Assembly (NCBI GenBank): GCA_011049545.1
Contig: DRHQ01000056.1
Coordinates: forward strand, 2,693-66,692
DNA from: Candidatus Aminicenantes bacterium
Lineage (GTDB): Bacteria; Acidobacteriota; Aminicenantia; Aminicenantales; Aminicenantaceae
Length of the DNA: 64,000 bases
Direction of reading: 5' to 3'
The first letter of the stretch is position 1. Every line of letters starts with the position of its first letter. Positions 6,885-26,506 of this stretch are shown here, one piece after another. Both the position numbers and the translations under genes were made by a program. A model generated the notes under the pieces. That model saw nothing but the letters and a program-made list of their open reading frames with translations. It was not told where the DNA came from and did no database searches.

Positions 6885-8318
6885 ATGAATGAAAAAGTAG
6901 TCAACCTCGTCACCGCTTCCGGGGCAACCTTCATAGGACTGGTTTTTCTTACCTGGTGGCTCCTCTATAATCCGGTCAGGGATTTCGTGGAAAGCGTTCC
7001 GGGCATGGACAACCGACCTCCGGGATTCAAAAGCCGGAGCGAAGCAGTGGATATTGGTGCCTATTTCGCCAGTTTTGACGGGATTCCTTCCGGGATTCAG
7101 GGAAGCTGGCCGAGGTTCAGGGGAGCCGATTTCGACAATATCAGCAAGGAAAAAATCAGACTTACCAGCAGTTGGGGCGATGCAGGACCGGACATTCTCT
7201 GGTCCATCGACCTGGGGGAAGGCCATGCCGCTCCAGTTGTTTCCAATGGAAGGGTTTATATCCTGGATTATGACGAAGATGAGAGGGCGGATGTTTTACG
7301 ATGTTTTTCTTTCGACGATGGAACGGAGATTTGGAGACGGGGCTACGAACTGCGTGTGAAAAGGAATCACGGGATGTCACGGACTGTTCCTGCTGTGACA
7401 GATAAATATGTTGTGACTATCGGACCGAAATGCCACGTCATGTGTGTGGATGCCGTTTCCGGTGATTTCAGGTGGGGAATCGATCTTGAAAGGGAATACG
7501 GAGCTGAGGTGCCTTTGTGGTACACCGGTCAATGCCCTCTTATAGACGATTCTTTGGCGGTTATTGCGGTTGGAGGAAGGTCGTTGATCATTGCCGTCGA
7601 TTGCGAGACCGGCGAGGTTGTCTGGGAAGTGCCTAATCCCAATGACTGGAAAATGTCACATTCGTCTATCATGCCGTTCTTTATCCAGGGGAAGAAGATG
7701 TATGTTTACTGTGCGCTAGGGGGAATTATAGGGATTTCAGCTGAGAAAGAGACAGCTGGCGAGATATTATTTGAAACCAATTTGTGGGATCGAACTGTCA
7801 TTGCTCCTTCTCCAATCCATATAGGTGATGGAAGAATCTTCGTTACGGCTGGATATGGCGCCGGAAGCATGATGTTGAAACTAAACTTTGAAGATGGTTC
7901 TTTTTCGGCAGAATCTCTTCAAGAATTAAAGCCCGGAGAGGGGATAGCATCGGAGCAGCAGACTCCGGTTTTTTATAAAGGTCATCTATTCTCTCTTTTA
8001 CCTAAAGACGCTGGACCTCTTCGCAATCAATTTGTCTGCTACCATCCGGATGACTGTAGCCAGATTCTCTGGTCCAGCGGGAAGACGAATCGCTTTGGTT
8101 TAGGACCATATATCGTTGCTGACGATAAATTCTTTATTCTAAGCGACGATGGAATTTTAACAATACTGAAGGTAAGTACCAGAGAATATGTTCAACTTGC
8201 CCGGGCAAAGGTTCTGGATGGAGTCGACGCCTGGGGGCCACTCGCTTTAGTAAGCGGCAGGCTGCTTGCCCGGGATTCGCGCCGGTTGGTCTGCATCGAC
8301 TTAAGGGCCGGTTTTTAG
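6885..8318 (+). CDS. Membrane-anchored PQQ-like beta-propeller protein
   Basis: N-terminal TM helix; WPRFRG, GEGHAAPVV, SRTVPAV, blade W motifs. Confidence 0.8.
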   Translation: MNEKVVNLVTASGATFIGLVFLTWWLLYNPVRDFVESVPGMDNRPPGFKSRSEAVDIGAYFASFDGIPSGIQGSWPRFRGADFDNISKEKIRLTSSWGDAGPDILWSIDLGEGHAAPVVSNGRVYILDYDEDERADVLRCFSFDDGTEIWRRGYELRVKRNHGMSRTVPAVTDKYVVTIGPKCHVMCVDAVSGDFRWGIDLEREYGAEVPLWYTGQCPLIDDSLAVIAVGGRSLIIAVDCETGEVVWEVPNPNDWKMSHSSIMPFFIQGKKMYVYCALGGIIGISAEKETAGEILFETNLWDRTVIAPSPIHIGDGRIFVTAGYGAGSMMLKLNFEDGSFSAESLQELKPGEGIASEQQTPVFYKGHLFSLLPKDAGPLRNQFVCYHPDDCSQILWSSGKTNRFGLGPYIVADDKFFILSDDGILTILKVSTREYVQLARAKVLDGVDAWGPLALVSGRLLARDSRRLVCIDLRAGF

Positions 8319-8333
8319 TCTGGAGGCTATGAT

Positions 8334-9323
8334 ATGCTTTCTTTTAAACAGAAAAAAAAGCGCTTGTTAACCATCGCAGTCATCGCTGTCTCGGTGGCCG
8401 GGATTCTCTACTTTGGCTATAAGGCCATCCGCGATAATTCAGCACGGAGTCAAGGGAATCCTTTCGAATACGATATTGAGGACTTTAAAAAAAGTGGTGC
8501 TGCTCTGGTTCACTACACAGAGGTCGGTCAAATACACATTGAGTTGAGGTTTGTCTCCGGAGTTTCGGTCGGCCCGGATGACAGAATTTACGTGTCTGGG
8601 GATGATTCCCTGCTCATTTTCAATGGAGACGGAATCCTTCATTCCACAATATCCATGGTTGGACCAGCATACTGTCTTTTTGTGGATAAGAACCACGATT
8701 TGTATCTGGGAATGGATGATCATGTTGAAGTTTATGATCGGAGGGGAGCCAAGAAATCCAGCTGGGAGTCATTGGGAGAGGAGGCCATAATCACTTCGAT
8801 CGCTGTTTCAGAAAATAACGTCTTTGTGGCAGATGCGGGGAATCACATTGTCTGGAAATTAGATAAATCCGGAAACCGGCTGAAAAGAATCGGTGAGAAA
8901 GACGAAGCCAGGGATATCCCCGGATTCATAATCCCCAGCCCCTTTTTCGATGTGGCTCTGGACCCGGATGGGTTTCTTTGGGTCGCCAACACCGGGCGCC
9001 ATTCGCTTGAAAATTATACAAAGGATGGAGACTTCAGAACGTCCTGGGGCGAGTTTTCCATGGAGATCGAAGGGTTTAGTGGATGCTGTAACCCGTCACA
9101 CTTTGCCATTCTAGAGGACGGCTCCTTCGTGACCAGTGAAAAGGGCCTGGCCAGAGTTAAAGTCTACAACCGGATTGGGGAGCTTGTTTCTGTTGTCGCC
9201 CTGCCGGATCAATTCATCGAAGGTACGGTCGGCCTGGATCTGGCCGTGGATTCGTCACAGAGGATCTATGTCCTGGATCCGAGGCAAAAATTAGTACGGA
9301 TATTCGAGAAAAAACAACTTTGA
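8334..9323 (+). CDS. NHL-repeat beta-propeller protein with vicinal-Cys motif (FSGCCNP)
   Basis: N-terminal TM anchor; NHL-like repeats VFVADAGNH, LWVANTGRH, IYVLDP. Confidence 0.75.
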   Translation: MLSFKQKKKRLLTIAVIAVSVAGILYFGYKAIRDNSARSQGNPFEYDIEDFKKSGAALVHYTEVGQIHIELRFVSGVSVGPDDRIYVSGDDSLLIFNGDGILHSTISMVGPAYCLFVDKNHDLYLGMDDHVEVYDRRGAKKSSWESLGEEAIITSIAVSENNVFVADAGNHIVWKLDKSGNRLKRIGEKDEARDIPGFIIPSPFFDVALDPDGFLWVANTGRHSLENYTKDGDFRTSWGEFSMEIEGFSGCCNPSHFAILEDGSFVTSEKGLARVKVYNRIGELVSVVALPDQFIEGTVGLDLAVDSSQRIYVLDPRQKLVRIFEKKQL

Positions 9324-9337
9324 GCCGGGAGAACACC

Positions 9338-9607
9338 ATGATGAAAGATTTTCAGAAGACAAAAAACAGACGTGAGTTTTTAAGGGATGGATTGCGGGCT
9401 GTCTTGTTCGGCGGTCTCGCCTTTACTGGCTTGTTCCTGGGATGGAAAGGACATTCTCTCTCGGGAATAGAACCATCCTGTCTGGTTCGTTTGCCCTGTC
9501 AGGGTTGTTCGAAACTTCCTGACTGCCAAGTGCCCAGAGCCATTGATACAAGGCAGAAGCCACATGATCCCCGAATTCAGTCTTTAAAAACGAAGAGAAA
9601 AGACTGA
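9338..9607 (+). CDS. Small Tat-motif, Cys-rich protein
   Basis: NRREFL twin-arginine motif, hydrophobic helix, C-x4-C-x2-C-x5-C; ATG 9338 follows GGGAG. Confidence 0.65.
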   Translation: MMKDFQKTKNRREFLRDGLRAVLFGGLAFTGLFLGWKGHSLSGIEPSCLVRLPCQGCSKLPDCQVPRAIDTRQKPHDPRIQSLKTKRKD

Positions 9608-9608
9608 G

Positions 9609-10196
9609 ATGATAGATAAAACATCAAAAAAACCGCTAAAGCGACGGGATTTCATCCGGAAAAGTCTCCATGCTGTGGCAGGTCTCACAATCGGAGGATT
9701 GGCTGGAATATTGTTCAGCAAGTCTTCTTCCGAAGAGATGGTCTGGCAGCTTGATCCCAATATCTGTATTCAGTGTGAAAAATGTTCGGTTAATTGTGTT
9801 TTACCTCACTCCGCTGTGAAATGTGTCCATTCCTATTCGGTGTGCGGTTATTGTGACCTTTGCAGCGGGTATCTCCAGCCTGGTACCAAAGTGAGAGATA
9901 CAGGGGCGGAAAGCCAGCTCTGTCCATCCGGTGCGCTTAAGCGGACGTACGTTGAAGATCCCTATTTTGAATACACGATCGATGAGAAATTGTGCGTCGG
10001 ATGCGGCAAATGTGTGAAGGGTTGTAATTCTTTCGGAAACGGTTCTTTATATTTACAGACACGACATGATCGCTGTCTGAACTGCAATCAATGCTCCATT
10101 GCCAGAAGGTGCCCTTCCCAGGCCTGGAATCGCGTGCCTGCCAGCCGGTCCTATATTCTCAAGGGTGATGAGAAGAAAAAGTTTTTGAAAAGCTAA
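9609..10196 (+). CDS. Tat-motif polyferredoxin (NapG/MauM-like role)
   Basis: KRRDFI motif plus hydrophobic helix; CIQCEKC, CGYCDLC, CVGCGKC, CLNCNQC..CP. Confidence 0.8.
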   Translation: MIDKTSKKPLKRRDFIRKSLHAVAGLTIGGLAGILFSKSSSEEMVWQLDPNICIQCEKCSVNCVLPHSAVKCVHSYSVCGYCDLCSGYLQPGTKVRDTGAESQLCPSGALKRTYVEDPYFEYTIDEKLCVGCGKCVKGCNSFGNGSLYLQTRHDRCLNCNQCSIARRCPSQAWNRVPASRSYILKGDEKKKFLKS

Positions 10197-10277: not shown

Positions 10278-11630
10278 ATGAGATATAAGTCGAGACGATC
10301 AAAGCTATTCATCGTTGCTTTGTTGTTTCTTTTCCCTCTGCTAGGACTGTCCCAGGTCCCGGAACGCGTCCCAAAGCCCGATTTTGAAACAGATTATATC
10401 CGGCCCGATTTTCTCACCCCCACACCTCGAGCCACTGCTTTGGAATACATAGATATAGGAGTCCTCATCGTGGCTCTTTTTCTGGCCACTTATTTCGCTC
10501 ACAAACAAAGATCGCGGCAGAACATCTTCCTGTTGATGGTGTTTTCTCTCGCCTATTTCGGGTTTTACAGAAAGGGATGCATTTGTCCGATCGGTGCCAT
10601 ACAGAACGTAACCTATGCGTTGTTCAACCCGGCCTACGCCATTCCTGTATTCGTCATTGTATTCTTTGTTCTTCCCCTTGTGTTGGCCTTGTTCTACGGT
10701 CGCACTTTCTGTGCCGCCGTATGTCCTCTCGGGGCGATTCAAGATGCCGTGGTCCTCAAGCCCACCAACGTACCAGGAGGGCTGGCTGCCGTCTTGAGTG
10801 TTCTTCCTTACCTTTATTTGGGACTGGCAGTCCTGCTGGCAGCAACCGGTGCAGGATTTATTATCTGTCAGTATGATCCATTCATCGGTTTCTTCCGTTT
10901 TGGCGCGGATTTTAATATGGTAATTTTTGGCCTGTCCATGCTCTTGCTGGGAACGGTTGTCGCCCGTCCATACTGCCGGTTTCTTTGTCCTTACGGCGTG
11001 CTGCTGAACTGGATGTCCCGTCTGTCAAAGAGGCATGTCGGGATTACACCAGATGAATGCAATAATTGCCGGTTGTGTGAAGAATCCTGTCCGTTTGGAG
11101 CGATAAAGAAACCTGACGAAGCGGCACCGCCGGCAAACAGAGAAGCTGAGGTCAAAAAACTTGCATTCATAATCGTTCTGCTTCCTATCGTTGTGTTTGG
11201 CAGCGGCTGGATCGGATCTCGATTAGAAATCCCGCTGTCCCGCCTGCATGCGAACGTCTCTTTGGCCGAAGAGATTCTGCTGGAGAATTCAGGCCAGAGA
11301 ACAGAGCTGACAGATGAAACAAAAGCGTTTAGAGCTTCGGGAAAGCCGACTGAAGAATTATTTGCGGAAGCAAGCGCCATTCAGCGTCAGTTTAAGGTTG
11401 GAGGATGGATTTTAGGGGGATTTATAGGATTGATCCTCTGTCTAAAGCTTATCAACCTTTTTATGCGGAGGAGACAATCGGAATATTACGTAGATAAAGG
11501 AACGTGTCTCAGCTGCGGGCGATGTTTTTCTTACTGCCCGTACGAACAGGTTCGGTTAGGAATCATAACTCCCAAAGAAGCAGAAAAAATGGGATCCAAA
11601 GAAGTGAAAATAAAACAGTTCAGGGCGTAA
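10278..11630 (+). CDS. Polytopic membrane 4Fe-4S protein (NapH/MauN/YccM family)
   Basis: Multiple TMs; GRTFCAAVCPLG, RPYCRFLCPYG, CNNCRLCEESCP, CLSCGRCFSYCP. Confidence 0.85.
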   Translation: MRYKSRRSKLFIVALLFLFPLLGLSQVPERVPKPDFETDYIRPDFLTPTPRATALEYIDIGVLIVALFLATYFAHKQRSRQNIFLLMVFSLAYFGFYRKGCICPIGAIQNVTYALFNPAYAIPVFVIVFFVLPLVLALFYGRTFCAAVCPLGAIQDAVVLKPTNVPGGLAAVLSVLPYLYLGLAVLLAATGAGFIICQYDPFIGFFRFGADFNMVIFGLSMLLLGTVVARPYCRFLCPYGVLLNWMSRLSKRHVGITPDECNNCRLCEESCPFGAIKKPDEAAPPANREAEVKKLAFIIVLLPIVVFGSGWIGSRLEIPLSRLHANVSLAEEILLENSGQRTELTDETKAFRASGKPTEELFAEASAIQRQFKVGGWILGGFIGLILCLKLINLFMRRRQSEYYVDKGTCLSCGRCFSYCPYEQVRLGIITPKEAEKMGSKEVKIKQFRA

Positions 11631-11634
11631 GATA

Positions 11635-13350
11635 ATGGCTAAACAGGCTGAAGATAATAGAAGAAAAAACAGGGCGAAACTGTGGTACAACATAGCCAAG
11701 AGGATTGCCATTGTTGCCGCCGTGCTGGCAGGGATACTCAGTGTCTTGATGATCGTCAATTACTTGCAGACTAAATCTGTCGATCCGATGAACAGCAAGG
11801 CCATCGCTCAGTTAATGACACAACTCCAGGAAAATCCAAGCGATACGGCTTTAAAGGAACAAATCCGGGCGCTTGATCTACTGGCCAGAAAAGCTTATTT
11901 CATTTATCAATGGCAGATAAGGACAGGAAGTTATCTGCTCTTTGCGTTTGTGCTTATTCTTCTGCTGGCTTTGAAATACATGAGTTCTCTGCAGCCCCGG
12001 TTACCCGACTTGAGCAAAAGCCCTGAGCCGGATGAAGCCCGGGAAAACAAGTTCATCTCTCGAAAGTACATCCTCTTTGGTGGACTGGGATTGTTTATCC
12101 TGGCCTTTATTCTCGGTATTATCTCCCAGACTGATTTGAAAAACATAGGTATCGTCAAAACTAAAGGAGGTCAGGGAGCCGCTGTTTTTCCCAGTATCGA
12201 AGAGATAAGGAATAACTGGCCCGGGTTCCGTGGTCCGGAAGGAATCGGAGTGGCCTATCACACAGATGTGCCCCCGGAATGGGATGGCCCTTCGGGTCAG
12301 AACATTCTTTGGAAAACACCAATTCCTCATCCCGGCTATAATTCACCCATCATTTGGGCAAAAAGAATCTTTCTTTCAGGAGCCGATAGAAGAACACAGA
12401 TTGTCTATTGTGTTGATGCCGATTCAGGGGAAATTCTGTGGCAAAAGGAACTCAATGACATTCCCGGATCCCCTGAGCGGCGGCCCAACGTTACAGAGGA
12501 TACAGGTTATGCCGCCCCTACGATGACGACCGACGGGCAGAGGATTTTTGTTCTGTTTGCGACCGGCGATATCGCCTGTCTCGATTTTGAAGGAAATCGG
12601 ATTTGGGCAAAAAACCTGGGAATGCCTGATAATCATTACGGGCATGGGTCGTCGTTGATTACATATCGAGATCTAGTGATTATTCAGTTCGATCAGAACA
12701 CGGGGGGGCGTCTTCTTGCCTTGAAAACCCTCACCGGAGACCTGGCGTACGACCAGCCCCGGGATGTAGAGATTTCGTGGGCTTCGCCTATACTGGTGAA
12801 TACGGGAAGCCGGACAGAGCTCATTCTCAATTCCAACCCGTTCGTGATGTCTCACGATCCACAAACTGGACAGGAGTTATGGCGAGTGAGATGCATGCAA
12901 GGGGAAATCGGCCCTTCTCCAGCTTATGCGGCGGGGATGGTCTACGTGGTTAACGACTATGCCCGTCTGGCCGCTATAAGACTTGGGGAGACTCCGGATG
13001 TAGTCTGGGAATACATCGATGACCTCTCGGAGGTATCCAGTCCTCTGGCTACAAATGATTTGGTCATCATGGCTGCCAGTTACGGGGCGGTGACATGTTT
13101 TGATAAAAAGACCGGAGAGAGATTATGGATTCAGGATTTTAGTGAGGGATTCTATTCGTCTCCGGTCTTAGTCGGTGATTCTGTTTATCTAATGGATGTG
13201 TCAGGCGTCATCTATGTCTTTAAGGCAGAGAGAGAATTCAGACTTATAAGCCAGCACGAATTAGGTGAAAGGGCAGTAACCATCCCCGCTTTCATGCACA
13301 ACCGGATCTACATCCGTGGAGAGAAGAATTTGTTTTGCATCGGAGATTAA
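11635..13350 (+). CDS. Membrane protein with C-terminal PQQ-like beta-propeller
   Basis: Three N-terminal TM helices, then WPGFRG, GYNSPII, YAAPTMTTDG. Confidence 0.8.
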   Translation: MAKQAEDNRRKNRAKLWYNIAKRIAIVAAVLAGILSVLMIVNYLQTKSVDPMNSKAIAQLMTQLQENPSDTALKEQIRALDLLARKAYFIYQWQIRTGSYLLFAFVLILLLALKYMSSLQPRLPDLSKSPEPDEARENKFISRKYILFGGLGLFILAFILGIISQTDLKNIGIVKTKGGQGAAVFPSIEEIRNNWPGFRGPEGIGVAYHTDVPPEWDGPSGQNILWKTPIPHPGYNSPIIWAKRIFLSGADRRTQIVYCVDADSGEILWQKELNDIPGSPERRPNVTEDTGYAAPTMTTDGQRIFVLFATGDIACLDFEGNRIWAKNLGMPDNHYGHGSSLITYRDLVIIQFDQNTGGRLLALKTLTGDLAYDQPRDVEISWASPILVNTGSRTELILNSNPFVMSHDPQTGQELWRVRCMQGEIGPSPAYAAGMVYVVNDYARLAAIRLGETPDVVWEYIDDLSEVSSPLATNDLVIMAASYGAVTCFDKKTGERLWIQDFSEGFYSSPVLVGDSVYLMDVSGVIYVFKAEREFRLISQHELGERAVTIPAFMHNRIYIRGEKNLFCIGD

Positions 13351-13357
13351 AACGGCT

Positions 13358-15712
13358 ATGAAACCGGAGACAGAAAGCATCAACTCTTTTATCGATCGGA
13401 TTGTCGATGAAATCGGCACTAAAGCCGGCGACGTTATCCCCATTCTGCATGCTATTCAAAGGGAATATAACTATCTTCCAGAATCGGCCCTGCGGAGGGT
13501 CTGCGATATCACGGATATATCGCCCGCTGCCATTACAGGCGTATCGACCTTCTACTCCCAATTCCGGCACACTCCGATGGGGCAGCACATCATCCGCGTC
13601 TGTGTCGGTACGGCCTGTCATGTCAAGGGCTCCGAATTGGTGCATGATGCCTTCTGCCGCGAACTGCATATCGGGGAAGGCCAGGATACTGATCCGGAAG
13701 GTCTATTCACTGTTCAAAAGATTGCTTGCCTTGGCTGCTGTACTATTGCTCCGGTTGTTCAGATCGATGATGTGACTTACGGGCATGTGAAAATAGAAGG
13801 TGTTGCCAATATTCTCCAGGATTTTTCCCATCACGAGAGCCGGAAAATAGTTGAATCCCGGGATCGCAAAATAAAAACTGAGGATGCCGGAGAGATCAAG
13901 ATCGGGCTGGGTTCCTGCTGTGTAGCCAGCGGGAGCAGCCGGGTGCAGCAGGCTCTGGAAATGTGCCTGGAGGAAACCGGCGTCCGTACTCAGGTGAAAA
14001 GGGTTGGGTGTGTGGGGATGTGTCACCGGACACCGCTCTTAGAAGTGAGTGTGCCGGACAAAGACCCGGTTCTTTATGACAGCGTCCAGCCCGAAGATGT
14101 GAGAAGCATTATCCTCAAACACTACAGACCTAAGGCTTTCGGCCAGCGGATCAAAAACGCGGCCTTCAGTCTTATTGAAAAAATCATCGATGATCCGCAT
14201 TCTGGCATGTTCACGCGTCATCCTCTTCATATGCGTGATCCGAGTATCCAGGCTTTTATGGGTAGACAGAAACATATTGCTACTGAGCATTCTGGTCAAA
14301 TCGATCCCATCGACCTTCAAGAATATTGTTCCAAAGGTGGTTTTGAAGCCTTAGAACGCAGTCTTTCGGAGTTCTCTCCTGATGATGTCATCGATCAAGT
14401 CAAATCCAGCGGGCTGAGGGGGAGAGGAGGAGCAGGGTTTCCCACCGGACAGAAATGGCAAATAACGCAGCAAGCAAAAGATAATACGAAATTTATCATT
14501 ATGAATGGCGATGAAGGAGATCCCGGGGCTTTTATGGACCGGATGATTCTGGAATCCTATCCGTTCCGGGTCATCGAAGGTATGATCATCGCTGCCTATG
14601 CCGTTGGCGCTCATGATGGATATTTTTACATTCGCGCTGAATATCCGTTAGCTGTCCAGCGGATCAAGGCGGCCCTCGAGCAGTGCCGGGAGGAAGGATT
14701 TTTAGGAGATGATATTTTAGGAAGTGGATTTTCGTTGCAGTTAAACATTTTGGAAGGAGCCGGCGCGTTTGTTTGTGGAGAGGAAACAGCGCTTATCGCT
14801 TCAATCGAGGGAAGGCGCGGCAATCCGAGCTTCCGTCCCCCTTATCCTGCTCAAAAGGGGCTGTGGGATCATCCGACGTTGGTGAGCAATTGTGAGACAT
14901 TTGCCATAGTGCCCTGGATCATCCGCAACGGGGCTGATGCATTTGCTGAGTTAGGGACGAAAGAGAGTAAGGGGACTAAAGTCTTTTCCCTGGCCGGGAA
15001 AGTTGCCCGCGGAGGACTTATTGAAGTCCCGATGGGAATCACGATTCAAGAGATTGTCAAAGACATCGGCGGCGGCATCGAAAATGGGAGACAATTCAAA
15101 GCCGTTCAGATTGGCGGGCCGTCGGGCGGCTGCATACCGGCCGAACTGGCGCATACCAGAGTCGATTACGAAGACCTCACCAAGGTAGGAGCAATGATGG
15201 GCTCCGGCGGTTTACTGGTGATGGATGATTCAGACTGCATGGTGGATATCTCCCGGTATTTTCTATCTTTTACACAAAACCAGTCCTGCGGGAAATGTAC
15301 GTTTTGCCGCATAGGTACACGCCACATGCTCCGTATTCTCGAGGACCTGTGTGCCGGTAAAGGGAAAGAGGAAGATCTTGTAAAGCTGGAGGAGATCGCC
15401 CATAAAACAAAACAGGGCAGTCTTTGCGGACTGGGGAAAACAGCCCCGAATCCTGTATTGACGACCCTGACTTATTTTAGAAAAGAGTATGAAGCTCATT
15501 TGAGAGGAACATGTCCGGCAAAGAGGTGTAAAGCTCTCATCACCTACACGATCGATGATACGTGTATCGGCTGTACAGTCTGCGCCCAGAAATGTCCGGT
15601 AGGCGCGATTGCAGTCACGCCTTATCAAAGACACATGATCGAGCAAACAGAATGCACGAAATGCGGGACCTGTAAACAGGTGTGTCCGACGGAGTCGGTG
15701 AACATCACATGA
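13358..15712 (+). CDS. Fused NuoE/HydC - NuoF/HydB NADH-binding Fe-S flavoprotein
   Basis: CVGTAC...CLGCC (2Fe-2S), second thioredoxin-like Fe-S domain, GLRGRGGAGFPTG, GDEGDPGAFMDR, GAGAFVCGEETAL, GGPSGG, SCGKCTFCR, C-terminal 2x[4Fe-4S]. Confidence 0.9.
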   Translation: MKPETESINSFIDRIVDEIGTKAGDVIPILHAIQREYNYLPESALRRVCDITDISPAAITGVSTFYSQFRHTPMGQHIIRVCVGTACHVKGSELVHDAFCRELHIGEGQDTDPEGLFTVQKIACLGCCTIAPVVQIDDVTYGHVKIEGVANILQDFSHHESRKIVESRDRKIKTEDAGEIKIGLGSCCVASGSSRVQQALEMCLEETGVRTQVKRVGCVGMCHRTPLLEVSVPDKDPVLYDSVQPEDVRSIILKHYRPKAFGQRIKNAAFSLIEKIIDDPHSGMFTRHPLHMRDPSIQAFMGRQKHIATEHSGQIDPIDLQEYCSKGGFEALERSLSEFSPDDVIDQVKSSGLRGRGGAGFPTGQKWQITQQAKDNTKFIIMNGDEGDPGAFMDRMILESYPFRVIEGMIIAAYAVGAHDGYFYIRAEYPLAVQRIKAALEQCREEGFLGDDILGSGFSLQLNILEGAGAFVCGEETALIASIEGRRGNPSFRPPYPAQKGLWDHPTLVSNCETFAIVPWIIRNGADAFAELGTKESKGTKVFSLAGKVARGGLIEVPMGITIQEIVKDIGGGIENGRQFKAVQIGGPSGGCIPAELAHTRVDYEDLTKVGAMMGSGGLLVMDDSDCMVDISRYFLSFTQNQSCGKCTFCRIGTRHMLRILEDLCAGKGKEEDLVKLEEIAHKTKQGSLCGLGKTAPNPVLTTLTYFRKEYEAHLRGTCPAKRCKALITYTIDDTCIGCTVCAQKCPVGAIAVTPYQRHMIEQTECTKCGTCKQVCPTESVNIT

Positions 15713-17310: not shown

Positions 17311-17316
17311 TGAGAA

Positions 17317-18477: not shown

Positions 18478-19760
18478 AAGTTGCGTATGTAACCCCTGGA
18501 TCCGGCCAGAGATTCTACTGTCAGAACTGTTTCCGAGATACCGCATTACTCCAGTCGCTGGCTTCCCTCGGGCATGATGTGGTCAAGGTTCCCATGTATC
18601 TCCCTTCAGATCTGGAAGGGAATGCAAATATAACTGAAACGCCGGTATTTTATGGCGCTATCAATGTCTTTCTCAAAGAAAAATTGCCCTTTTATAGGCA
18701 TGCTCCTGAATGGATAGAACGTATGTTCGATTCTTCTGTTTTACTGCATCTGGCAGCAAAAAAATCCGGCTCAACGCGCGCCACCGGACTCGAAGAAATG
18801 ACACTATCCATGCTGCACGGGGAAAGGGGAAGGCAGGCGTCAGAGCTGGACCATCTTATCCGATACCTCAGGACTGAGATAGCTCCGGATGTCGTTCATC
18901 TCTCGAATTCCCTGTTACTCGGACTGGCCCACAGACTCAAAAATGATCTGGGGACAGGTGTAGTGTGTTCACTCCAGGATGAGAATGAATGGGTTGATTT
19001 GATGGACGAACATTACCAGAGTCAGGTCTGGAACTTAATGGCCGAAAAAGCCGTTGATGTCGACCTCTTTGTGACAGCCAGTCAGTTTTATTCCAAACAA
19101 TCTCAAAATCAGCTGAAAATGCCTGCAGACAGGATAAGGGTGATATATGGCGGGATTGATTTTAAGGGGTACCAAAGATCAACTCTTCCCTTTGACCCTC
19201 CGGTCATCGGATACTTGTGCAGGATGTCTGAATACTTCGGACTGGGGATACTCGTTGACGCTTTTATCGAGTTAAAAAAAGAGAGCCGGTTTAAGGATTT
19301 AAGATTGCACCTGACCGGCGGTTACTCGAGCGATGATAAACCTTTTGTGAACAGACAGTTGAAAAAAATATCTGAACACGGTTTCGCTGAAGATGTAAGA
19401 GTATTCAAGGACTTCTGCAAGGACAGCCGGATAAAATTTCTCAAATCCCTGACGATGCTCTCTGTGCCTGTCCCTACCGGAGAGGCATTTGGCGCCTATC
19501 AAGTCGAAGCCTTGGCAGCCGGAGTTCCTATCGTTCAGCCGAATGTGGGCTGCTATCCAGAATTTATCGAGATGACTAAAGGCGGCGTCATCTATGAACC
19601 GAATACAAGCGAAAAACTGGCGACGGCCATAGCTTCCCTTCTTTCCGATCAGGAAAAAGTGAGAAAGCTGGGCGAACAGGGAAGAAGAGTCGTGCTGGAG
19701 CAATTTTCCATGGACCAGATGGCAAAAAATATTGAGGAGATTTATAACGATGTTGCTTGA
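18474..19760 (+). CDS. Glycosyltransferase family 4 with N-terminal FYCQNC motif
   Basis: EAFGAYQVEALAAGVP (E-x7-E GT4 signature), PDVVHLSN. Confidence 0.85.
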   Translation: MKVAYVTPGSGQRFYCQNCFRDTALLQSLASLGHDVVKVPMYLPSDLEGNANITETPVFYGAINVFLKEKLPFYRHAPEWIERMFDSSVLLHLAAKKSGSTRATGLEEMTLSMLHGERGRQASELDHLIRYLRTEIAPDVVHLSNSLLLGLAHRLKNDLGTGVVCSLQDENEWVDLMDEHYQSQVWNLMAEKAVDVDLFVTASQFYSKQSQNQLKMPADRIRVIYGGIDFKGYQRSTLPFDPPVIGYLCRMSEYFGLGILVDAFIELKKESRFKDLRLHLTGGYSSDDKPFVNRQLKKISEHGFAEDVRVFKDFCKDSRIKFLKSLTMLSVPVPTGEAFGAYQVEALAAGVPIVQPNVGCYPEFIEMTKGGVIYEPNTSEKLATAIASLLSDQEKVRKLGEQGRRVVLEQFSMDQMAKNIEEIYNDVA

Positions 19761-20442
19761 ACTCAAAAATATTTCCAAAAAATATGAAATTCCGTCCGGC
19801 GAGGGTCATACAACTGTCCTTAGGGACATCTCCCTTCAGATCATCCAGGGCGAATCGGTGGCTATTGTCGGGCCATCGGGATCCGGGAAAAGCACTCTTT
19901 TGAATATCATCGGTGCACTTGATAAGCCCACCTCGGGAGTGGTGATATTTGCGGGGAAAAATCTGGCTGACCTGGATGATGCGGAACTATCTCAAATCAG
20001 AAACCAGGAGATCGGTTTTGTTTTTCAACTCCATCATCTGCTTCCCCAGTGTACGGTTTTCGAAAATGTTTTGATTCCGACGATTCCTCCTGGATTGGAA
20101 AAAGAAGATGAGGACGTTCAGGAAAGAGCCACAGATTTACTGGGAAGAGTTGGCCTTGAAAAACACAAAGATTATTTTCCGGCGCAACTGTCCGGAGGTG
20201 AGATGCAGCGTGTGGCTGTCATCAGAGCCCTCATAAACAGGCCAAAGCTGATCCTGGCGGACGAACCAACAGGTTCTCTGGACAGGGAATCCTCCGAGAA
20301 TCTTGGTCAACTTCTGGTCAAAGTGAATAAGGAAGAGGGGACAACCTTAATAACTGTCACTCATTCGATCGAGATTGCGCGGCTGATGGACAAGGTGTAC
20401 AGACTCCAGGACGGGATACTAGAGAATGATCTAATCGAATGA
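19750..20442 (+). CDS. ABC transporter ATP-binding protein (LolD/MacB-type)
   Basis: [35 protein letters not shown]. Confidence 0.9.
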
Positions 20443-23400
20443 ATCTTTGGAAATTACTCTGGCGCAGCCTTGCCTATTATCGAAAAACACATCTCTGGGT
20501 CGTCCTAGGAACCCTGATAAGCACGGCCATGCTTGTCGGTGCCCTGGTCATCGGTGATTCTGTTCGCCACAGCCTTCAACAGATTGTGTCTGACAGGCTC
20601 GGAACGACGGAGTTTGCTCTATCTTCAGAGGATCGTTTCTTCGAGGCTCGCTTGGCAGATGACCTGGCGAAATCCCTCGGAACCACCGTTGCTCCCCTGC
20701 TTCAAACGAGAGGGATGGCCATAGCTGAGGGCGGGAAGCGCCGAGTCAACAGCATTCAGGTGGTCGGGATAGATGCCCGTTTTGGAGAGATGGGCGGTGC
20801 TGAGGATTTTTACAGTCAAATTGCTCCCGATGAAGTCATCGTCAACCGTCAGCTTGCAGAACGTCTGGGGGTAGAAAAAAACGATGAGATATTACTCCGG
20901 TTTCAGAAGCTGGATGCTATGCCCAAGGATGCACCTCTTTCTTTGGATTCTGAATCCGCGGTTGCCAGGCGCTTTCGTGTGAGAGGCATTGCCTTGGATT
21001 CTGAATTCGGAAGCTTTAATCTCAAGGCGGATCAAGTCATCCCCAGCACTGCGTTTGTTTCCTTGTCTGGCATATCGCGAGAAATGGGTTTTGCCCAAAA
21101 GGCAAATGTTCTGCTTGTTTCAGAAAGAGAAGGAAATCCTCTGGACATCCAGATAGTGAATGACGCATCCCGGGACGCCTGGACGCTTGCTGATTCCGGT
21201 CTTGAATTGAGGGAAATTCACGGCAAGACCATTGTCGAACTCAGATCGAGTCGAATCTTCCTGGATCCTTCTGTTGTCGACGGCGCCTTGAGTCTAAGCG
21301 AGTCGGCTCAGCCCATACTGACATATTTTGTCAACGAACTGCGCCGAGGCGAGAGATCAACGCCATATTCCTTTATCTCTGCCCCGGGCGCTCCCGTCGT
21401 TCCTCCTGACATGAAAGATGATGAGATCATCATTAATGAATGGCTTGCCAGGGATTTACAGGCGGGTGCGGGTGACCGGCTTCAGCTGACTTATTATATA
21501 CTCGGACCAAGACGTGATCTGGAAGAGTTGAACTCTGATTTCAGGGTGAAGGCTGTAGTGCCGTTGAGAGGAATTTATGCGGATAAAGATTTACTGCCTG
21601 ATTTTCCCGGCTTAGCAGACGAGGCAAACTGCCGCGATTGGAAGCCCGGGATACCTATAGATCTGGATAAGATCCGGGATAAAGATGAGGATTATTGGGA
21701 CGATTACAGGGGAACTCCCAAAGCATTCGTGACTCTGGCCGCAGCTCAGAGGATGTGGGCCAACCGCTTCGGGAATGTTACGGCAGTACGGTTTCCAGGT
21801 TTAAAAAAGGACGATGTACAGAAGAATCTTAAGAAGGCCATAGATCCGTCCGGGCTCGGATTTATCTTCCGGGATCTTAAGAGTGAAGGGCTCCGGGCGA
21901 GTTCACAGTCCGTTAGTTTCGCTCAGCTTTTTCTTGGGCTGAGTTTCTTCATCATCGTCGCGGCTTTGTTATTGACAAGTTTACTGTTTGTTTTCAACAC
22001 AGAAAATCGAACAGAGGAAAACGGGTTGTTTCTCGCCTTAGGATTTTCCTCGAAGGCCGTGAGGCGGTTGGTGCTGCGAGAAGGTGCAGTACTCGTGGTG
22101 CTGGGCAGTTTGCTGGGGAGTTTTGCGGGAATCCTTTATAACCTGCTCATCCTCAAGGCACTGGAAACAGTCTGGCGTGGGGCTGTGGGAACATCGGTAC
22201 TCCATTTTCATTTCAAGTTATCCTCTATCCTTCTGGGGGCATCGGCCGGCATGGTTGCCGCATTGTTCACGATTTGGCTGGTGACCAGGAGACAGATCAG
22301 TCAGCCCATTTCCGGCTTGCAGAAGGGTCTGGCAAAGGTAGAGACAATCTGGAAAAAAAAGCCCGGGATGAGTCTGCTCGTCGGCATTTCATCCTTGCTT
22401 GCAGTCCTGTTCATCCTGGTAGTAACGGATGTTGGAAGAGGAGAAAACGCTTTTACGTTTTTCTTTATTGCTGGCTCCTTGCTTCTGGTCGGCGGGATGG
22501 CGTTGGCAAATGTCATGCTTTATAAATTGGGGAGAAACACAAGAGGAGTACCTCTCAGTCTTCTTAATCTCGGCGCTCGCAATAACGCAAGAAACCGGAT
22601 GCGCAGCATCACCCTGATAGGTCTTCTGGCTTGTGGTGTATTCATCGTTTTCACTGTCGGAGCCAATCGTATCAATGCCCTTAAAGATGCCGAGAGAAAG
22701 GATTCAGGCACGGGTGGATTTGCTCTCTATGGGGAAAGTTCTATTCCTGTTCTGTATGACCTTAACAGCCAAAAGGGGAAGCAGTTTTATGGATTGGAGC
22801 GCCCAGGGACAATAGATGTGAGTTATGTCCAGTTTCGTCTGAAAGAAGGGGATGACGCGAGCTGTTTGAACCTCAATCGTGTTTCAACTCCTCCGTTGAT
22901 CGGCGTCGATCCTGAAGAGCTAAGCAGGCGAAAAGCCTTTACGTTCGCTGAGACGACGGATGAGGTTAATCCGGGAAATCTCTGGTCGATCCTCGAACAA
23001 AATTTATCGGACGGGACTATCCCCGCAGTCGCCGACCAATCTGTTATCGTTTGGGGATTGGGCATGGCGGTGGGTGATTACCTGACATATCTGGATGAAA
23101 AAGGCGAGACCTTTCAACTCAAGCTTGTCGGGGGATTGGCCAATTCGATTTTTCAAGGGAAAATCATCATTTCCGAAAAAGCTTTCATTCAAAAATTTCC
23201 CTCTATAAGCGGGTACCGGCTCTTTCTTGTAGAAGCCCCCTTTGAAAAAATGGATGAAGTTAGAGAAAGCATATCCTGGGCCATGCAGGATCAAGGTCTG
23301 GATTTGATGGCTGCCTCTACCCGGCTGGCAGAGTTTAACACGGTGCAGAACACCTATCTATCCATTTTCCTGATTCTTGGCAGCTTTGGCTTATTATTGG

Positions 23401-23732
23401 GGAGTGTTGGTTTGGGGATAGTCGTCTGGCGCAATGTCAAGGAGCGACAGGGTGAACTGGCACTGCTCCGGGCTGTTGGCTTCACCAAGAAATCCATTCA
23501 AGCCATTATCTTATCTGAGCACATTGGGCTTTTAATCGCTGGGATTTTTTATGGAATTCTTGCTGCGCTGCTGGCGACTCTCCCATCCCTCTTGACTCCC
23601 GGTGCAGAAATCCCGTATCTTATTATATTCATAATATTAATAATTATAGGGCTGAACGGAACAATATGGACGTACTCGGCAGCGTATTTTGCGACGAAAA
23701 AGGATCTCATTCCAGCCCTAAGGAAGGAATAA
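20439..23732 (+). CDS. Large FtsX/MacB-family ABC permease (1097 aa)
   Basis: Two FtsX-type TM blocks (RTEENGLFLALGFS; RQGELALLRAVGF) with large extracytoplasmic domains. Confidence 0.85.
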   Translation: MNLWKLLWRSLAYYRKTHLWVVLGTLISTAMLVGALVIGDSVRHSLQQIVSDRLGTTEFALSSEDRFFEARLADDLAKSLGTTVAPLLQTRGMAIAEGGKRRVNSIQVVGIDARFGEMGGAEDFYSQIAPDEVIVNRQLAERLGVEKNDEILLRFQKLDAMPKDAPLSLDSESAVARRFRVRGIALDSEFGSFNLKADQVIPSTAFVSLSGISREMGFAQKANVLLVSEREGNPLDIQIVNDASRDAWTLADSGLELREIHGKTIVELRSSRIFLDPSVVDGALSLSESAQPILTYFVNELRRGERSTPYSFISAPGAPVVPPDMKDDEIIINEWLARDLQAGAGDRLQLTYYILGPRRDLEELNSDFRVKAVVPLRGIYADKDLLPDFPGLADEANCRDWKPGIPIDLDKIRDKDEDYWDDYRGTPKAFVTLAAAQRMWANRFGNVTAVRFPGLKKDDVQKNLKKAIDPSGLGFIFRDLKSEGLRASSQSVSFAQLFLGLSFFIIVAALLLTSLLFVFNTENRTEENGLFLALGFSSKAVRRLVLREGAVLVVLGSLLGSFAGILYNLLILKALETVWRGAVGTSVLHFHFKLSSILLGASAGMVAALFTIWLVTRRQISQPISGLQKGLAKVETIWKKKPGMSLLVGISSLLAVLFILVVTDVGRGENAFTFFFIAGSLLLVGGMALANVMLYKLGRNTRGVPLSLLNLGARNNARNRMRSITLIGLLACGVFIVFTVGANRINALKDAERKDSGTGGFALYGESSIPVLYDLNSQKGKQFYGLERPGTIDVSYVQFRLKEGDDASCLNLNRVSTPPLIGVDPEELSRRKAFTFAETTDEVNPGNLWSILEQNLSDGTIPAVADQSVIVWGLGMAVGDYLTYLDEKGETFQLKLVGGLANSIFQGKIIISEKAFIQKFPSISGYRLFLVEAPFEKMDEVRESISWAMQDQGLDLMAASTRLAEFNTVQNTYLSIFLILGSFGLLLGSVGLGIVVWRNVKERQGELALLRAVGFTKKSIQAIILSEHIGLLIAGIFYGILAALLATLPSLLTPGAEIPYLIIFIILIIIGLNGTIWTYSAAYFATKKDLIPALRKE

Positions 23733-23792
23733 GCGTTTTATACGTCTAAATAGAAAGCATGAAATGAATAAGAATCAACTTGGAGGAACGTC

Positions 23793-25145
23793 ATGAAGAG
23801 AAAGAATGTATGTGCTGTCTTGACGCTGGCCGTTTGTATGACCGCAGGTTTGGCGCAAGCGCAGGAGAACTGGCCTCACTGGCGAGGACCTCATCACAAC
23901 GGAATCAGTGATTCCACCGGCCTTCCCATGAAGTGGAGCCTGACCGAGAACATTGTCTGGAAGATATCTTTACCTTCATGGAGTGCTGCTACTCCGATAA
24001 TTTGGGGTGACCGTATATTCATCACGTCTCCCTCTAAATCCGAGCCGAAAACAGAGCCGCCAGAACAGGATCAACAACAGAGAAGACGCAGGAGACCCAG
24101 CCTTGATCCCGGAGGCCCGGAGCTATTCCTGTTCTGCATTTCTAAAAAAGATGGCAAGATACTCTGGAAACGTGAGCTGGACAATAAGAACCAGATGCAC
24201 CGCAAGCAAAACGACGCCACACCCTCACCTGTTACTGACGGGAAGCATGTCTGGGTGGTCACAGGGACAGGCAAAGTCACAGCCTTCGACATGAATGGCA
24301 AGCAAATCTGGAAGAAAGATCTTCAGCAGGAATTTGGCCCGTTCGGTCATAATTGGGGCTATGGTTCTTCGCCATTGCTGTACGACGGCAGTCTTATAGT
24401 TGAAGTCCTGCATGGCATGCGAACTGACGACCCCTCTTATATTGTATCTTTCAAGGCGAAGACAGGTAACGTTCAATGGCGGCAGGAACGGCCCACAGAT
24501 GCCCAAAGAGAATCCCCCGATGCGTATACAACTCCGGTTCTTCTCAAACAGGAGGGCAAGACCCAGTTCGTTATTTCTGGAGGGGATTATGTCACGGGGC
24601 ATGACTTCAAAACAGGAAAAGAGATTTGGCGGGCAGCCGGCTTGAATCCTTTGCGCCGGTCCAATTATCGCGTTGTTCCCACTCCCATCATCGTTGGTGG
24701 TCTGATCTATGCCCCAACCCGTAAAAAGCCTCTTTTAGCGCTGAGAGTTGGCGGGACAGGGGATATTACAGAAAGTCACCTTGCTTGGAAGTATGAGGGA
24801 TCAGGTGCCCCGGATGTTCCTTCCCCCGTGTGCGATGGAAAACATTTTTACATGGTTGATGATCGTGGGCTGGTAACATGTTTGGACGCCAAGACAGGAG
24901 CCCTGATTTGGGGACCTGAGGCAACAACGGAAGGTATCGTGAGCGCATCTCCGATACTATCTGAAGGTAAGCTTTATATCTTGAACGAGAAAGCCGTGGC
25001 TTCCATCGTTTCTGTGGGGCCGGAGTTTAAGCTGCTGGCTACGAATGAACTGGACGGAACTTACACCTTAGCGTCACCCGCGGTTTCCGGGTCCCAGCTC
25101 TTTATCAGGACTTCCACACACTTGTATTGTATAAAGTCAAAATGA
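23793..25145 (+). CDS. Secreted PQQ-like beta-propeller protein
   Basis: Signal peptide ending AQA; WPHWRG, ATPSPVTDG, GYGSSP. Confidence 0.85.
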   Translation: MKRKNVCAVLTLAVCMTAGLAQAQENWPHWRGPHHNGISDSTGLPMKWSLTENIVWKISLPSWSAATPIIWGDRIFITSPSKSEPKTEPPEQDQQQRRRRRPSLDPGGPELFLFCISKKDGKILWKRELDNKNQMHRKQNDATPSPVTDGKHVWVVTGTGKVTAFDMNGKQIWKKDLQQEFGPFGHNWGYGSSPLLYDGSLIVEVLHGMRTDDPSYIVSFKAKTGNVQWRQERPTDAQRESPDAYTTPVLLKQEGKTQFVISGGDYVTGHDFKTGKEIWRAAGLNPLRRSNYRVVPTPIIVGGLIYAPTRKKPLLALRVGGTGDITESHLAWKYEGSGAPDVPSPVCDGKHFYMVDDRGLVTCLDAKTGALIWGPEATTEGIVSASPILSEGKLYILNEKAVASIVSVGPEFKLLATNELDGTYTLASPAVSGSQLFIRTSTHLYCIKSK

Positions 25146-25159
25146 AAAGGAGAATAAAG

Positions 25160-26506
25160 ATGATGAAAAAAACTGCAGTTTTGATGGGAATTATTCTTGT
25201 TTTTTCGAATCTGTTTTTTGCTGCAGAAAAATCCTCAGATTACGAAAAATACTGGCACCAATGGCGCGGGCCCTTCATGACGGGTGAATCACCTGGAGGG
25301 GATCCACCTCTCGAGTGGAGTGAGACCAAAAACATAAAATGGAAAATCGCCATTCCCGGCACAGGCCATGCCTCTCCCGTAATTTGGGGAGACCAAATAT
25401 TTATACTGACAGCCGTTGAGACCGATAAAGTTGCTAAACCGGCTGAAGAAAGTGAACCCGCACCGCAGGCTCATCGCGGCATGCCGATTAACAGAACCAC
25501 AAAGATCCATAGATTTGTTATTTTTGCGATCAACCGGCATGACGGTAAAATTCTCTGGGAGCGCACAGTTAAAGAAGAAGTACCACAAGAAGGGATCCAC
25601 GAAATGGGCAGTTGGGCTTCGCATTCACCGGTGACTGATGGTGAACACATCTATGCCTACTTTGGTTCACGTGGTCTGTTTTGTTTTGATATGCTGGGAA
25701 ATCTCAAATGGGATCGGGATTTTGGTCAGCTGAACAAAAGGATGAATTTTGGCGAAGGAAGTTCCCCCGCACTTTATGGGGATAGAATTATCGTGAATTG
25801 GGATCACGAAGGACAGTCGTTTATTATTGCTCTTGATAAAAAGACAGGCAAAAACATCTGGAAGGTGGATCGAGATGAAAGAACTTCGTGGGCAACGCCC
25901 CTTGTCGTCGAGAATAATGGGAAGCTCCAGGTAGTTACAAGTGCCACCAAGCTAGTGCGGAGTTATGACTTTACCACGGGAGAATTGATCTGGGAATGCA
26001 GTGGAATGACTCTGAATGCCATACCGTCGCCTATGGCGGCTGATGGAATTCTGCATGTTATGAGCGGCTTTCGGGGGAACGCCCTGCTGGCCATAGATCT
26101 ATCAAAAGCCAAAGGTAACATCGTAGATTCCGACGCTATTGTCTGGAAACATGACAAAGACACGTCCTACGCACCTTCGGGACTGCTCTTCGATAATAAA
26201 TTGTACTTTCTCAAGAGCAACAATGGGATCCTTTCCTGTTTTGAGGCCAAGAATGGGAAAGAATACTACAGCAGGCAGAGACTTGAAGGAATAGGAAATG
26301 TATTTGCTTCACTGGTCGGAGTTAAGGACAGAGTTTATGTCGTCGGTCAAAAAGGCACAATGTATGTGATTAAGCATGGCCCTGTATTTGAAGTTCTTGC
26401 CAAGAACAAGCTGGATGATAATTTTAGTGCGTCACCTGCAATCGTGGGCAGTATGCTTTACTTACGCGGCTATAAGAATCTTTACTGTATTGAAGAGAAA
26501 AATTGA
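25160..26506 (+). CDS. Secreted PQQ-like beta-propeller protein
   Basis: AGGAG RBS before ATG 25160; signal peptide; WHQWRG, GHASPVIWG, ASHSPVTDG. Confidence 0.85.
   Translation: MMKKTAVLMGIILVFSNLFFAAEKSSDYEKYWHQWRGPFMTGESPGGDPPLEWSETKNIKWKIAIPGTGHASPVIWGDQIFILTAVETDKVAKPAEESEPAPQAHRGMPINRTTKIHRFVIFAINRHDGKILWERTVKEEVPQEGIHEMGSWASHSPVTDGEHIYAYFGSRGLFCFDMLGNLKWDRDFGQLNKRMNFGEGSSPALYGDRIIVNWDHEGQSFIIALDKKTGKNIWKVDRDERTSWATPLVVENNGKLQVVTSATKLVRSYDFTTGELIWECSGMTLNAIPSPMAADGILHVMSGFRGNALLAIDLSKAKGNIVDSDAIVWKHDKDTSYAPSGLLFDNKLYFLKSNNGILSCFEAKNGKEYYSRQRLEGIGNVFASLVGVKDRVYVVGQKGTMYVIKHGPVFEVLAKNKLDDNFSASPAIVGSMLYLRGYKNLYCIEEKN

Follow-up and report, generated by a model that had tools for sequence, protein, structure and literature searches.

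What could bind a cytoplasmic flavoenzyme, a membrane iron–sulfur (Fe–S) protein, a series of β-propellers and an ATP-binding cassette (ABC) system into one gene cluster? The question is raised by a 64,000-nucleotide stretch of DNA from Candidatus Aminicenantes bacterium (GCA_011049545.1, contig DRHQ01000056.1, positions 2,693–66,692, forward strand; hereafter the window), in which 14 co-directional genes, g01–g14, occupy positions 6885–26506 of the + strand. We read the cluster as an electron-transfer system of anaerobes that is self-contained and has spread horizontally, without a recognisable haem or flavin mononucleotide (FMN)-binding component in its periplasmic and membrane part. Tentatively, we favour a conduit without haem that links cytoplasm and periplasm and supplies tethered propeller enzymes, with outward flow as an electron sink for fermenters. 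Domains were assigned by Pfam and NCBIfam model scores, and these, together with a check of the open reading frames (ORFs), agree with the coordinates and domains given in a preliminary description of this DNA.

6885–8318, + strand: g01, eight-bladed PQQ_2/BamB-like propeller with an N-terminal membrane anchor (Pfam, 32-sequence alignment, AlphaFold2 (AF2) model)
8334–9323, + strand: g02, membrane-anchored six-bladed NHL propeller with a GCCNP motif (C251, C252) (Pfam, alignment, AF2 model)
9338–9607, + strand: g03, small twin-arginine (Tat) protein with C-x6-C-x2-C-x5-C (ORF opens at TTG 9320; 89–95 residues)
9609–10196, + strand: g04, Tat polyferredoxin with 16 invariant Cys (Pfam Fer4 families, alignment)
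10278–11630, + strand: g05, NapH-like polytopic Fe–S protein (Pfam Fer4_5 2.3e-13)
11635–13350, + strand: g06, three transmembrane helices, then a predicted periplasmic PQQ_2 propeller (Pfam, hydropathy)
13316–15712, + strand: g07, fusion of BfuC (NuoE-like) and BfuB (NuoF-like, FMN, C-terminal 2x[4Fe-4S]) (Pfam; probable start ATG 13358)
15709–17310, + strand: g08, short Nfn-type BfuA with 2Fe-2S, Fer4_20, a GltD-like Pyr_redox part for flavin adenine dinucleotide and NAD(P)H, and C-terminal Fe–S (Pfam, PDB matches)
17317–18477, + strand: g09, lipoprotein propeller, Beta-prop_ACSF4/PQQ_2 (Pfam 6e-60; lipobox LLIAC)
18474–19760, + strand: g10, GT4 glycosyltransferase with N-terminal PGxGxxFYCxNC (Pfam)
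19732–20442, + strand: g11, LolD/MacB-type ABC ATPase (TIGR02211, 249.8 bits, cut-off 307.75)
20439–23732, + strand: g12, duplicated FtsX/MacB-type permease of 1097 residues (Pfam; 10 hydrophobic segments)
23793–25145, + strand: g13, secreted PQQ_2 propeller (Pfam)
25127–26506, + strand: g14, secreted PQQ_2 propeller (Pfam)

The likely start codons of g08 and g03 are those at 15709 and 9338.

Are these genes a unit? The preliminary description had named scattered rather than syntenic homologues as its refutation, and the order is conserved. Among genomes, g02 located 12 loci, whose records include Aminicenantes, Acidobacteriota, Latescibacterota, Pirellulales and 'uncultured'. In metagenomes, at least 599 stretches matched the g02 alignment, at least 517 of which encode a relative, and the best 80 loci were analysed. 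The order g01–g02–(g03)–g04–g05–g06–g07–g08–g09–g10 is found in 12/12 genome loci, as far as the contig reaches, and g01–g10 keep their order in the best 80 metagenome loci as well. Counted as loci with the gene over loci with enough room on the contig, g01 is present in 55/56, g04 in 55/58, g05 in 46/47, g06 in 36/36, g07 in 28/29, g08 in 20/22, g09 in 19/23 and g10 in 15/22. The full 14-gene order is kept in two genomes (G041 and G043).

Fortuitous adjacency would mean that a transhydrogenase, a NapGH-like pair and an ABC/GT4 set, as two or three operons without any relation, happen to lie among propeller genes. Such a patchwork could account for the 414-base-pair gap with a promoter-like site ahead of g01, and for the foreign genes between g06 and g07 in three loci (L073, L074, L092). 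It is difficult to reconcile with an order that holds down to ~45% identity, in records of at least three phyla and on hundreds of contigs. It is equally at odds with the ATGA start/stop overlaps of g07/g08, g09/g10 and g11/g12, which the preliminary description had placed at 15709, 18474 and 20439 and which are present on direct reading of the sequence. Moreover, 3/41 relatives have both g05 and the cluster-type g07, and 38 have neither. We consider chance neighbourhood very improbable.

The g06/g07 junction seems to be a spot where the cluster tolerates insertions. Three loci carry other genes there. Between g06 and g07, L073 encodes an RDD-family protein (15597–17411), and L074 encodes a radical SAM and a DUF5916/CBM9 protein (14820–18702). 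In L092 (9047–14545), a restriction-modification pair (an 1180-residue PLD/SNF2 helicase protein and an MmeI-type methylase) directly follows g06, at the place expected for g07, and appears to be a mobile insertion interrupting the cluster. Sporadic inserts overall comprise an RDD protein, radical SAM, DUF5916/CBM9, a restriction-modification pair, a squalene-hopene cyclase-like protein, MFS and an M16 peptidase. No extra conserved partner was found in the flanks: among 347 flank ORFs (≥110 residues, unmatched to cluster genes), no family occurs in more than three loci.

The cluster is larger than first described. Its 14 genes are real, and position 6885 is not its start, because an orthologue of the upstream propeller gene u1 (66–80% identity) is syntenic, upstream of g01, in 5/12 genome loci and 9/80 metagenome loci. 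Across loci, one to six further g01-like propellers precede g01 (up to 6 in L090 and L099). For the single promoter that had been placed ahead of g01, the sequence match exists, and it is not evidence of a promoter, since 12 such sites are found in 3000–7000 against 9.2 ± 3.1 in shuffled sequence. The upstream features are as follows.

3628–4992, + strand: u1, secreted PQQ_2-type propeller, paralogue of g13/g14 (Pfam PQQ_2 3.8e-23; WPSFRG opens the mature part)
5020–6471, + strand: u2, secreted PQQ_2-type propeller (Pfam; 48% identity to u1)
6632–6660, + strand: promoter-like TTGACG-17-TATATT (10/12 positions match; such sites not enriched over shuffles)

The G+C content of the cluster is 0.45–0.50, versus 0.40–0.43 in the first 6 kb of the window. 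Genes flanking the cluster in the window are unrelated to it and encode hydrolases, an amidohydrolase and an MttB-family methyltransferase. The methyltransferase gene (Pfam 5.3e-70) shares the stretch 29183–33396 with genes for an amino-acid permease and a DAO-type oxidoreductase, which come after it; further on, at 35743–39164, a second permease and an OYE and Pyr_redox fusion protein are encoded. These genes suggest the utilisation of quaternary amines or amino acids and have no relation to the cluster.

Which part of the cluster is essential to it? In a Pirellulales genome, g01–g08 stand alone, with an AcrB-like gene of opposite strand behind them; a different contig of this genome encodes a GT4 (32%), an ABC ATPase (50%) and an FtsX permease (35%, E 3.4e-156). 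Hence the redox half, g01–g08, forms the invariant core, which the GT4/ABC half often accompanies with looser linkage. Where the GT4/ABC half is present, its genes travel together. In two extended genome loci, g10–g11–g12–g13–g14 are contiguous as in the window, and in a third genome g11–g14 lie together on a short contig. A block of g09/g10–g11–g12 precedes g01 in L076 and L104, relocated yet adjacent; in L069, g11–g12 directly follow g09.

On the cytoplasmic side, g07 and g08 had been called a HydBC-type enzyme. The call is right, and PDB profile matches sharpen it to the Nfn type of the Bfu family. The best match of g07 is NfnB (9n5u_B, 2.1e-213), followed by 9bov_B and 8oh5_B; g08 matches 9bov_A (1.1e-104), 8oh5_C and NfnA (9n5u_A). 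Because the best matches are NfnB and NfnA/StnC, sequence places g07/g08 as a probable Nfn-type (NfnABC/StnABC) member of the Bfu family of electron-bifurcating enzymes. Pfam detects 2Fe-2S_thioredx (8.5e-47, residues 26–170), Complex1_51K (2.5e-44), NADH_4Fe-4S (6.4e-31) and Fer4_21 (6.9e-9) in g07, and Fer2_4, Fer4_20 and Pyr_redox_2 in g08. The Cys residues of the BfuC (NuoE-like) part (C96, C101, C138, C142) are invariant, as are those of the BfuB part in seven sequences (C658/661/664/704, C750–760, C780–790). As in NfnABC/StnABC, the NuoE-type 2Fe-2S, the FMN domain, the N3-type 4Fe-4S and the Cys of the C-terminal dicluster are thus all kept in g07. Unlike in these enzymes, BfuC and BfuB form one chain; BfuA is short, g08 having ~533 residues versus 963–1178 in the solved NfnA/StnC chains and no large C-terminal domain; and the genes are embedded in, and co-inherited with, a membrane/periplasmic cluster. 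The described enzymes, as presented in the consulted part of a 2022 survey, are soluble proteins that work with free ferredoxin (PMC9304861).

Each of the 41 relatives has between two and six NuoF/HydB paralogues, with at most 58% identity to g07. The fused, cluster-type g07 (69–77% identity) is found in exactly the three that hold a g05 orthologue (G000, which is the window's genome, G009 and G024). The g07/g08 pair is dedicated to this cluster. Four further NuoF/HydB-type genes with 38–55% identity to g07 lie on other contigs of the window's genome (C154, C104, C148, C54); among them are one set with separate NuoE and NuoF and one probable complex I NuoF.

How could electrons leave such an enzyme towards the periplasm? 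The preliminary description had suggested a NapG/H-like transmembrane Fe–S pair, and the Cys motifs of g05 lie on both predicted membrane faces, which fits such a path. Topology was predicted from hydropathy and from counts of Lys and Arg (K+R), and includes one weak helix (~residues 83–99) placed by eye. Invariant Cys of K+R-poor loops, namely the GCICP motif (C101, C103) and C197, are predicted to be periplasmic. Two invariant CX3CP motifs (C145-x3-C149-P and C233-x3-C237-P) and two [4Fe-4S] motifs (C261–C271 and C410–C420) lie in K+R-rich loops, predicted to be cytoplasmic. With the weak helix included, the Fe–S motifs of g05 are predicted to face the cytoplasm; those of NapH are described as facing the cytoplasm.

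On the periplasmic side, R12, R13 and 16 Cys of g04 are invariant in 25 sequences, which suffices for four [4Fe-4S] motifs. It scores 19.4 bits against the NapG model (cut-off 269) and is probably alike in kind to a NapG-type polyferredoxin, not its orthologue. Between g02 and g04, a g03-type gene is present in 56/65 loci, 16 of which encode it as an in-frame fusion with g04. Because of this fusion, we read g03 as a putative extra 4-Cys module that adds a fifth metal centre to the periplasmic wire. Of the nine loci counted as misses, some carry an RK variant of the signal. Two Planctomycetota loci (L117 and L118, genomes G723 and G596) have no g03, and g04 has its own Tat signal there.

A NapG/H-like pair next to propellers brings known systems to mind. 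NosZ and MauB are propeller catalytic subunits, and g03, a small Cys-rich Tat protein, resembles MauA. The locus might then be a diverged copy of Nap, Nos, Mau (MauM/N) or organohalide respiration (RdhC-like). Like NapGH, NosGH and MauMN, the pair has a Tat signal and four [4Fe-4S] motifs in g04, and Fer4_5, two CX3CP and two cytoplasmic [4Fe-4S] in g05. Unlike in these systems, the membrane protein g05 contains additional helices and its second cluster domain is split, and the pair is joined by the module g03 and by a dedicated cytoplasmic flavoenzyme next door. Scores of g05 are far below the cut-offs of NapH/MauN (TIGR02163, 47.3 bits, cut-off 213), PRK09477 (45.4 versus 234) and NosR (44.8 versus 1000). 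The cluster and the flanks of the best 80 loci hold no NapAB, NosZ or methylamine dehydrogenase, and neither NapA, a NosZ cupredoxin, RdhA, a cytochrome nor FMN_bind/ApbE is found in the cluster genes or recurs among flank ORFs. The fusion of g03 to g04 in 16 loci fits an Fe–S module, not a quinone-cofactor subunit. Descent from one of these systems is hardly credible.

The nitrous-oxide reductase system brings together, in one cluster, the periplasmic propeller enzyme NosZ, its NapH-type donor (NosR/NosGH), the NosDFY ABC system and the lipoprotein NosL. The present cluster has the same logic, without the cupredoxin domain, the His-rich CuZ site or homologues of NosD, NosY and NosL; its ABC system is of the FtsX/MacB type.

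If no familiar catalyst is encoded, where would the electrons go? As noted earlier from the sequence, neither a molybdoenzyme, a hydrogenase, a cytochrome nor a reductive dehalogenase occurs in the cluster genes or recurs in the flanks of the best 80 loci. Pfam and a motif check further detected no FMN-binding, ApbE, haem (CxxCH), molybdopterin or cupredoxin domain in the 16 cluster proteins. This leaves the propellers. Seven PQQ_2-type propellers in the window start their mature part with W-P/H-x-F/W-R-G; they group as u1/u2/g13/g14/g06 (26–48% identity), then g01, then g09. All score below the cut-offs of the pyrroloquinoline-quinone dehydrogenase model (TIGR03075, 30–94 bits, cut-off 480) and the BamB model (TIGR03300, 24–143 bits, cut-off 285), and the resemblance to BamB is one of fold only.

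The AF2 model of g01 (predicted local distance difference test (pLDDT) 90.8) has eight blades, and its nearest folds are BamB, then tetrathionate hydrolase and quinoprotein dehydrogenase. In the 32-sequence alignment, the loops NHGxSRTxP, WYxGQC and QxTP are invariant. They look like a site rather than a scaffold, for which a cofactor cannot be named. A [4Fe-4S] site formed by C140, C187, C385 and C470 was considered and rejected, as these residues belong to a repeated xCxD blade-strand motif.

The NHL propeller g02 (AF2 model, pLDDT 88.8) has six blades, with GCCNP just ahead of an inner strand. Across 25 sequences, down to 45% identity, GCCNP, D167, D206, E226, E269, K270, R274 and K276 do not vary. 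A fold search and a PDB profile search gave NHL domains only and no enzyme-specific match. Because g02 is helix-anchored in the window and has a lipobox in L117 and L118, where it is a lipoprotein, it is predicted to be tethered at the periplasmic face with either anchor type. One locus, L102, carries two tandem NHL copies between the g02 and g04 positions, one of them with GCHNP instead of GCCNP. A complex prediction for g02 (55–329) and g04 (40–195) gave a score of 0.01 against a mark of 0.32 without control runs, and is counted neither for nor against binding.

From the observed composition, motifs, synteny and co-occurrence, and from the predicted topology, we infer a path including its contacts, the Bfu port that feeds g05, the direction of flow and the substrate. 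In this path, g07/g08 would exchange electrons among NAD(P)H, carriers at the ferredoxin level and the NapH-like g05, which would take them over through its two cytoplasmic [4Fe-4S] centres. Cys-bound centres, the two CX3CP motifs inside and GCICP and C197 outside, would carry the electrons across the membrane. The Tat-exported g04, with its four [4Fe-4S], and the 4-Cys module g03 would accept them and pass them to the tethered propellers, the constant ones being g02, g01 and g06. Feeding from the ferredoxin site of the Bfu enzyme would supply g05 with electrons of ~-500 mV; feeding from the Fe–S chain of BfuA would imply that NADH and reduced ferredoxin are confurcated, as happens in HydABC. 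The terminal redox site would most likely be the C251–C252 pair of g02, with S–S or sulfane chemistry, a guess at which the vicinal Cys pair and the tetrathionate-hydrolase-like fold hint. The specific version, a bifurcating or confurcating Bfu enzyme plugged directly into an all-Fe–S membrane wire without quinone, haem or flavin that would give ferredoxin-level electrons to cofactor-poor periplasmic propellers or take them up from there, with the Cys–Cys pair of g02 acting on an external sulfane- or disulfide-type substrate, is doubtful.

Outward flow is favoured because the carrier lineages are fermentative anaerobes and because the cluster encodes no periplasmic catalyst for a low-potential donor. 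With the same wiring, electrons could instead flow inward: the propellers would oxidise an external low-potential donor, and electrons would pass via g04/g03 and g05 to be confurcated with NADH to NADPH by the Nfn-type enzyme. NfnABC chemistry is reversible according to the consulted parts of two reports (PMC11829005, PMC12018979), and a survey of NapH-like systems proposes, in the portion drawn on here, that those beside periplasmic oxidases such as ExaA carry electrons in (PMC8238504). The fold of g01 also resembles the cofactor-free tetrathionate hydrolase and the quinoprotein dehydrogenases. Inward flow would have to work with propellers that show no recognisable metal or quinone site, and the cluster lacks the known periplasmic catalysts for low-potential donors, hydrogenase and formate dehydrogenase. 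For PqqC, 5/5 carriers gave no match, a weak argument since the 14 control genomes gave none either. We regard inward flow as unlikely.

Several points weigh against the outward conduit. Its part-to-part contacts are inferred. No recognisable cofactor site is found in the propellers, whose folds lead only to BamB, NHL, tetrathionate hydrolase and quinoprotein, and the majority of the conserved Cys of g01, belonging to a repeat motif, need not be functional. The module g03 is missing in some Planctomycetota, and in the Pirellulales genome the GT4/ABC genes are on a separate contig. Nfn enzymes commonly run towards NADPH, which fits inward flow too. The NapH of E. coli is described as a quinol-oxidising subunit, and g05 could receive its electrons from quinol instead of the Bfu enzyme. 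With respect to quinones, the window's genome has a MenA-like gene (107 bits, cut-off 102), MenA-like matches at or below the cut-off occur in 4/5 genomes, and MqnA/D of the futalosine pathway (PF02621) was found only in G045 among the five genomes. Evidence for transcription is weak, resting on short contigs of a relative from one metatranscriptome. This true metatranscriptome gave 14 short contigs of 90–99% likeness, which touch 15/30 bins across g01–g14, and DNA carry-over is possible. Three RNA-labelled runs hold small shares of the stretch, two of them probably DNA, and all data are assembled contigs, so that co-transcription and transcript ends are unreadable.

What, then, is the GT4/ABC half for? 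GT4 enzymes usually have a Gly-rich loop at the N-terminal position. The motif PGxGxxFYCxNC(xRD) of g10 (window 18474–18560) is found in 15/15 orthologues with a readable N-terminus; its FYCxNC Cys pair, at the usual position of that loop, is unusual. The ATPase g11 adjoins g10 and g12 in G041 and G043, and g12 orthologues (60–76% identity) are adjacent in G041, G042, G043 and G044. Two large periplasmic domains are predicted in g12 (40–500 and 743–977), which belongs to the wider FtsX/MacB_PCD superfamily of Pfam. After g12, g13 is conserved in L033, L034 and L036. As in the type VII ABC systems MacB, LolCDE and YbbAP, g11 is closest to LolD, MacB and YbbA, and g12 combines FtsX and MacB_PCD domains with large periplasmic domains. 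Unlike these systems, g12 is duplicated, with 10 segments in 1097 residues; equivalog scores are below the cut-offs (LolD 249.8 versus 307.75, lolCE 33 versus 362, MacB 231 versus 966); and the cluster encodes neither a TolC-type nor a membrane-fusion partner. We read g09, g10, g11/g12 and the extra secreted propellers as an accessory module on the envelope side.

Alternatively, the whole locus could be a machine for envelope biogenesis or maintenance, in which the propellers, the Lol/MacB-like ABC system and the GT4 build or move an outer-envelope component, and the redox half serves only to keep periplasmic Cys reduced or to mature the propellers. BamB chains are indeed the best structural matches of g01, and the Lol/MacB likeness of g11 and g12 would fit. 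The seven paralogous propellers in this one locus, and up to 6 extra upstream in L090 and L099, suggest clients or scaffolds, and the GT4/ABC genes are still linked after rearrangement in L076 and L104. A bifurcating flavoenzyme and a five-centre polyferredoxin would however be a heavy cost for thiol upkeep; the redox half of the Pirellulales locus has no adjoining GT4/ABC half; and the equivalog scores for BamB, LolD and LolCE are all below cut-off. Such a machine seems quite unlikely.

In which organisms is the cluster found? The NHL-GCCNP protein was found in 3/401 sampled genomes of the window's phylum (E ≤ 1e-60; five candidates per genome scored) and in 42/301 sampled genomes of Planctomycetota, the phylum of the Pirellulales carrier; in G678, G718 and G557, among these, the match lies on a low-numbered contig. 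DNA nearly identical to the window's occurs in cold-seep and sediment habitats. Atlas clusters neighbouring g02 are labelled Latescibacterota, Planctomycetota, Bacteroidota and Acidobacteriota. Because the distribution is patchy, and Aminicenantes and Latescibacterota records share 60–80% identity, the sequences point to horizontal spread. The cluster is a tightly conserved set of anaerobic sediment bacteria and is frequent in uncultured lineages there, as the metagenome stretches indicate.

The composition had been thought new, and a full-text literature search found no characterised system that has it; the gene-cluster supplements of PMC8238504 and PMC9304861, which lie outside that search, might contain it without comment. 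NapH-like proteins are presented in the part of the first survey used here as modular devices for extracytosolic electron transfer, some of them beside the propeller enzymes ExaA and NirS (PMC8238504). The flavinylation-associated systems covered there (Méheust et al. 2021) likewise use a NapH-like link between internal electron pools and extracytosolic oxidoreductases, some of which are propellers. As far as that part goes, they differ in being defined by an FMN-binding domain and ApbE, neither of which occurs in the 16 proteins here; in the present cluster a polyferredoxin serves as periplasmic carrier and a Bfu enzyme as cytoplasmic partner, and the same part mentions NuoF-like partners for MsrQ-like systems only (PMC8238504). 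The second survey proposes membrane-bound Bfu complexes, and its description of Nfn-Bfu enzymes, in the section consulted, does not include this arrangement (PMC9304861). NapH-like extracytoplasmic transfer and soluble Nfn-Bfu enzymes are thus already known, and their combination, with uncharacterised propellers as putative acceptors, appears to be new.

Membrane electron transfer of the NapH/NosR type, and its donor, are still open questions. With g05 co-inherited with a cytoplasmic enzyme and a Tat polyferredoxin, the cluster would be a clean test case of membrane electron transfer that is quinone-independent and haem-free. If the proposal is true, a Bfu-type bifurcating enzyme is wired to a periplasmic process. 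A Bfu enzyme plugged into an all-Fe–S wire would be an unrecognised respiratory or electron-sink pathway. The only candidate catalysts are eight propellers without a known cofactor, which makes new propeller chemistry likely. Such an electron sink or source could matter for carbon and sulfur turnover in anoxic sediments.

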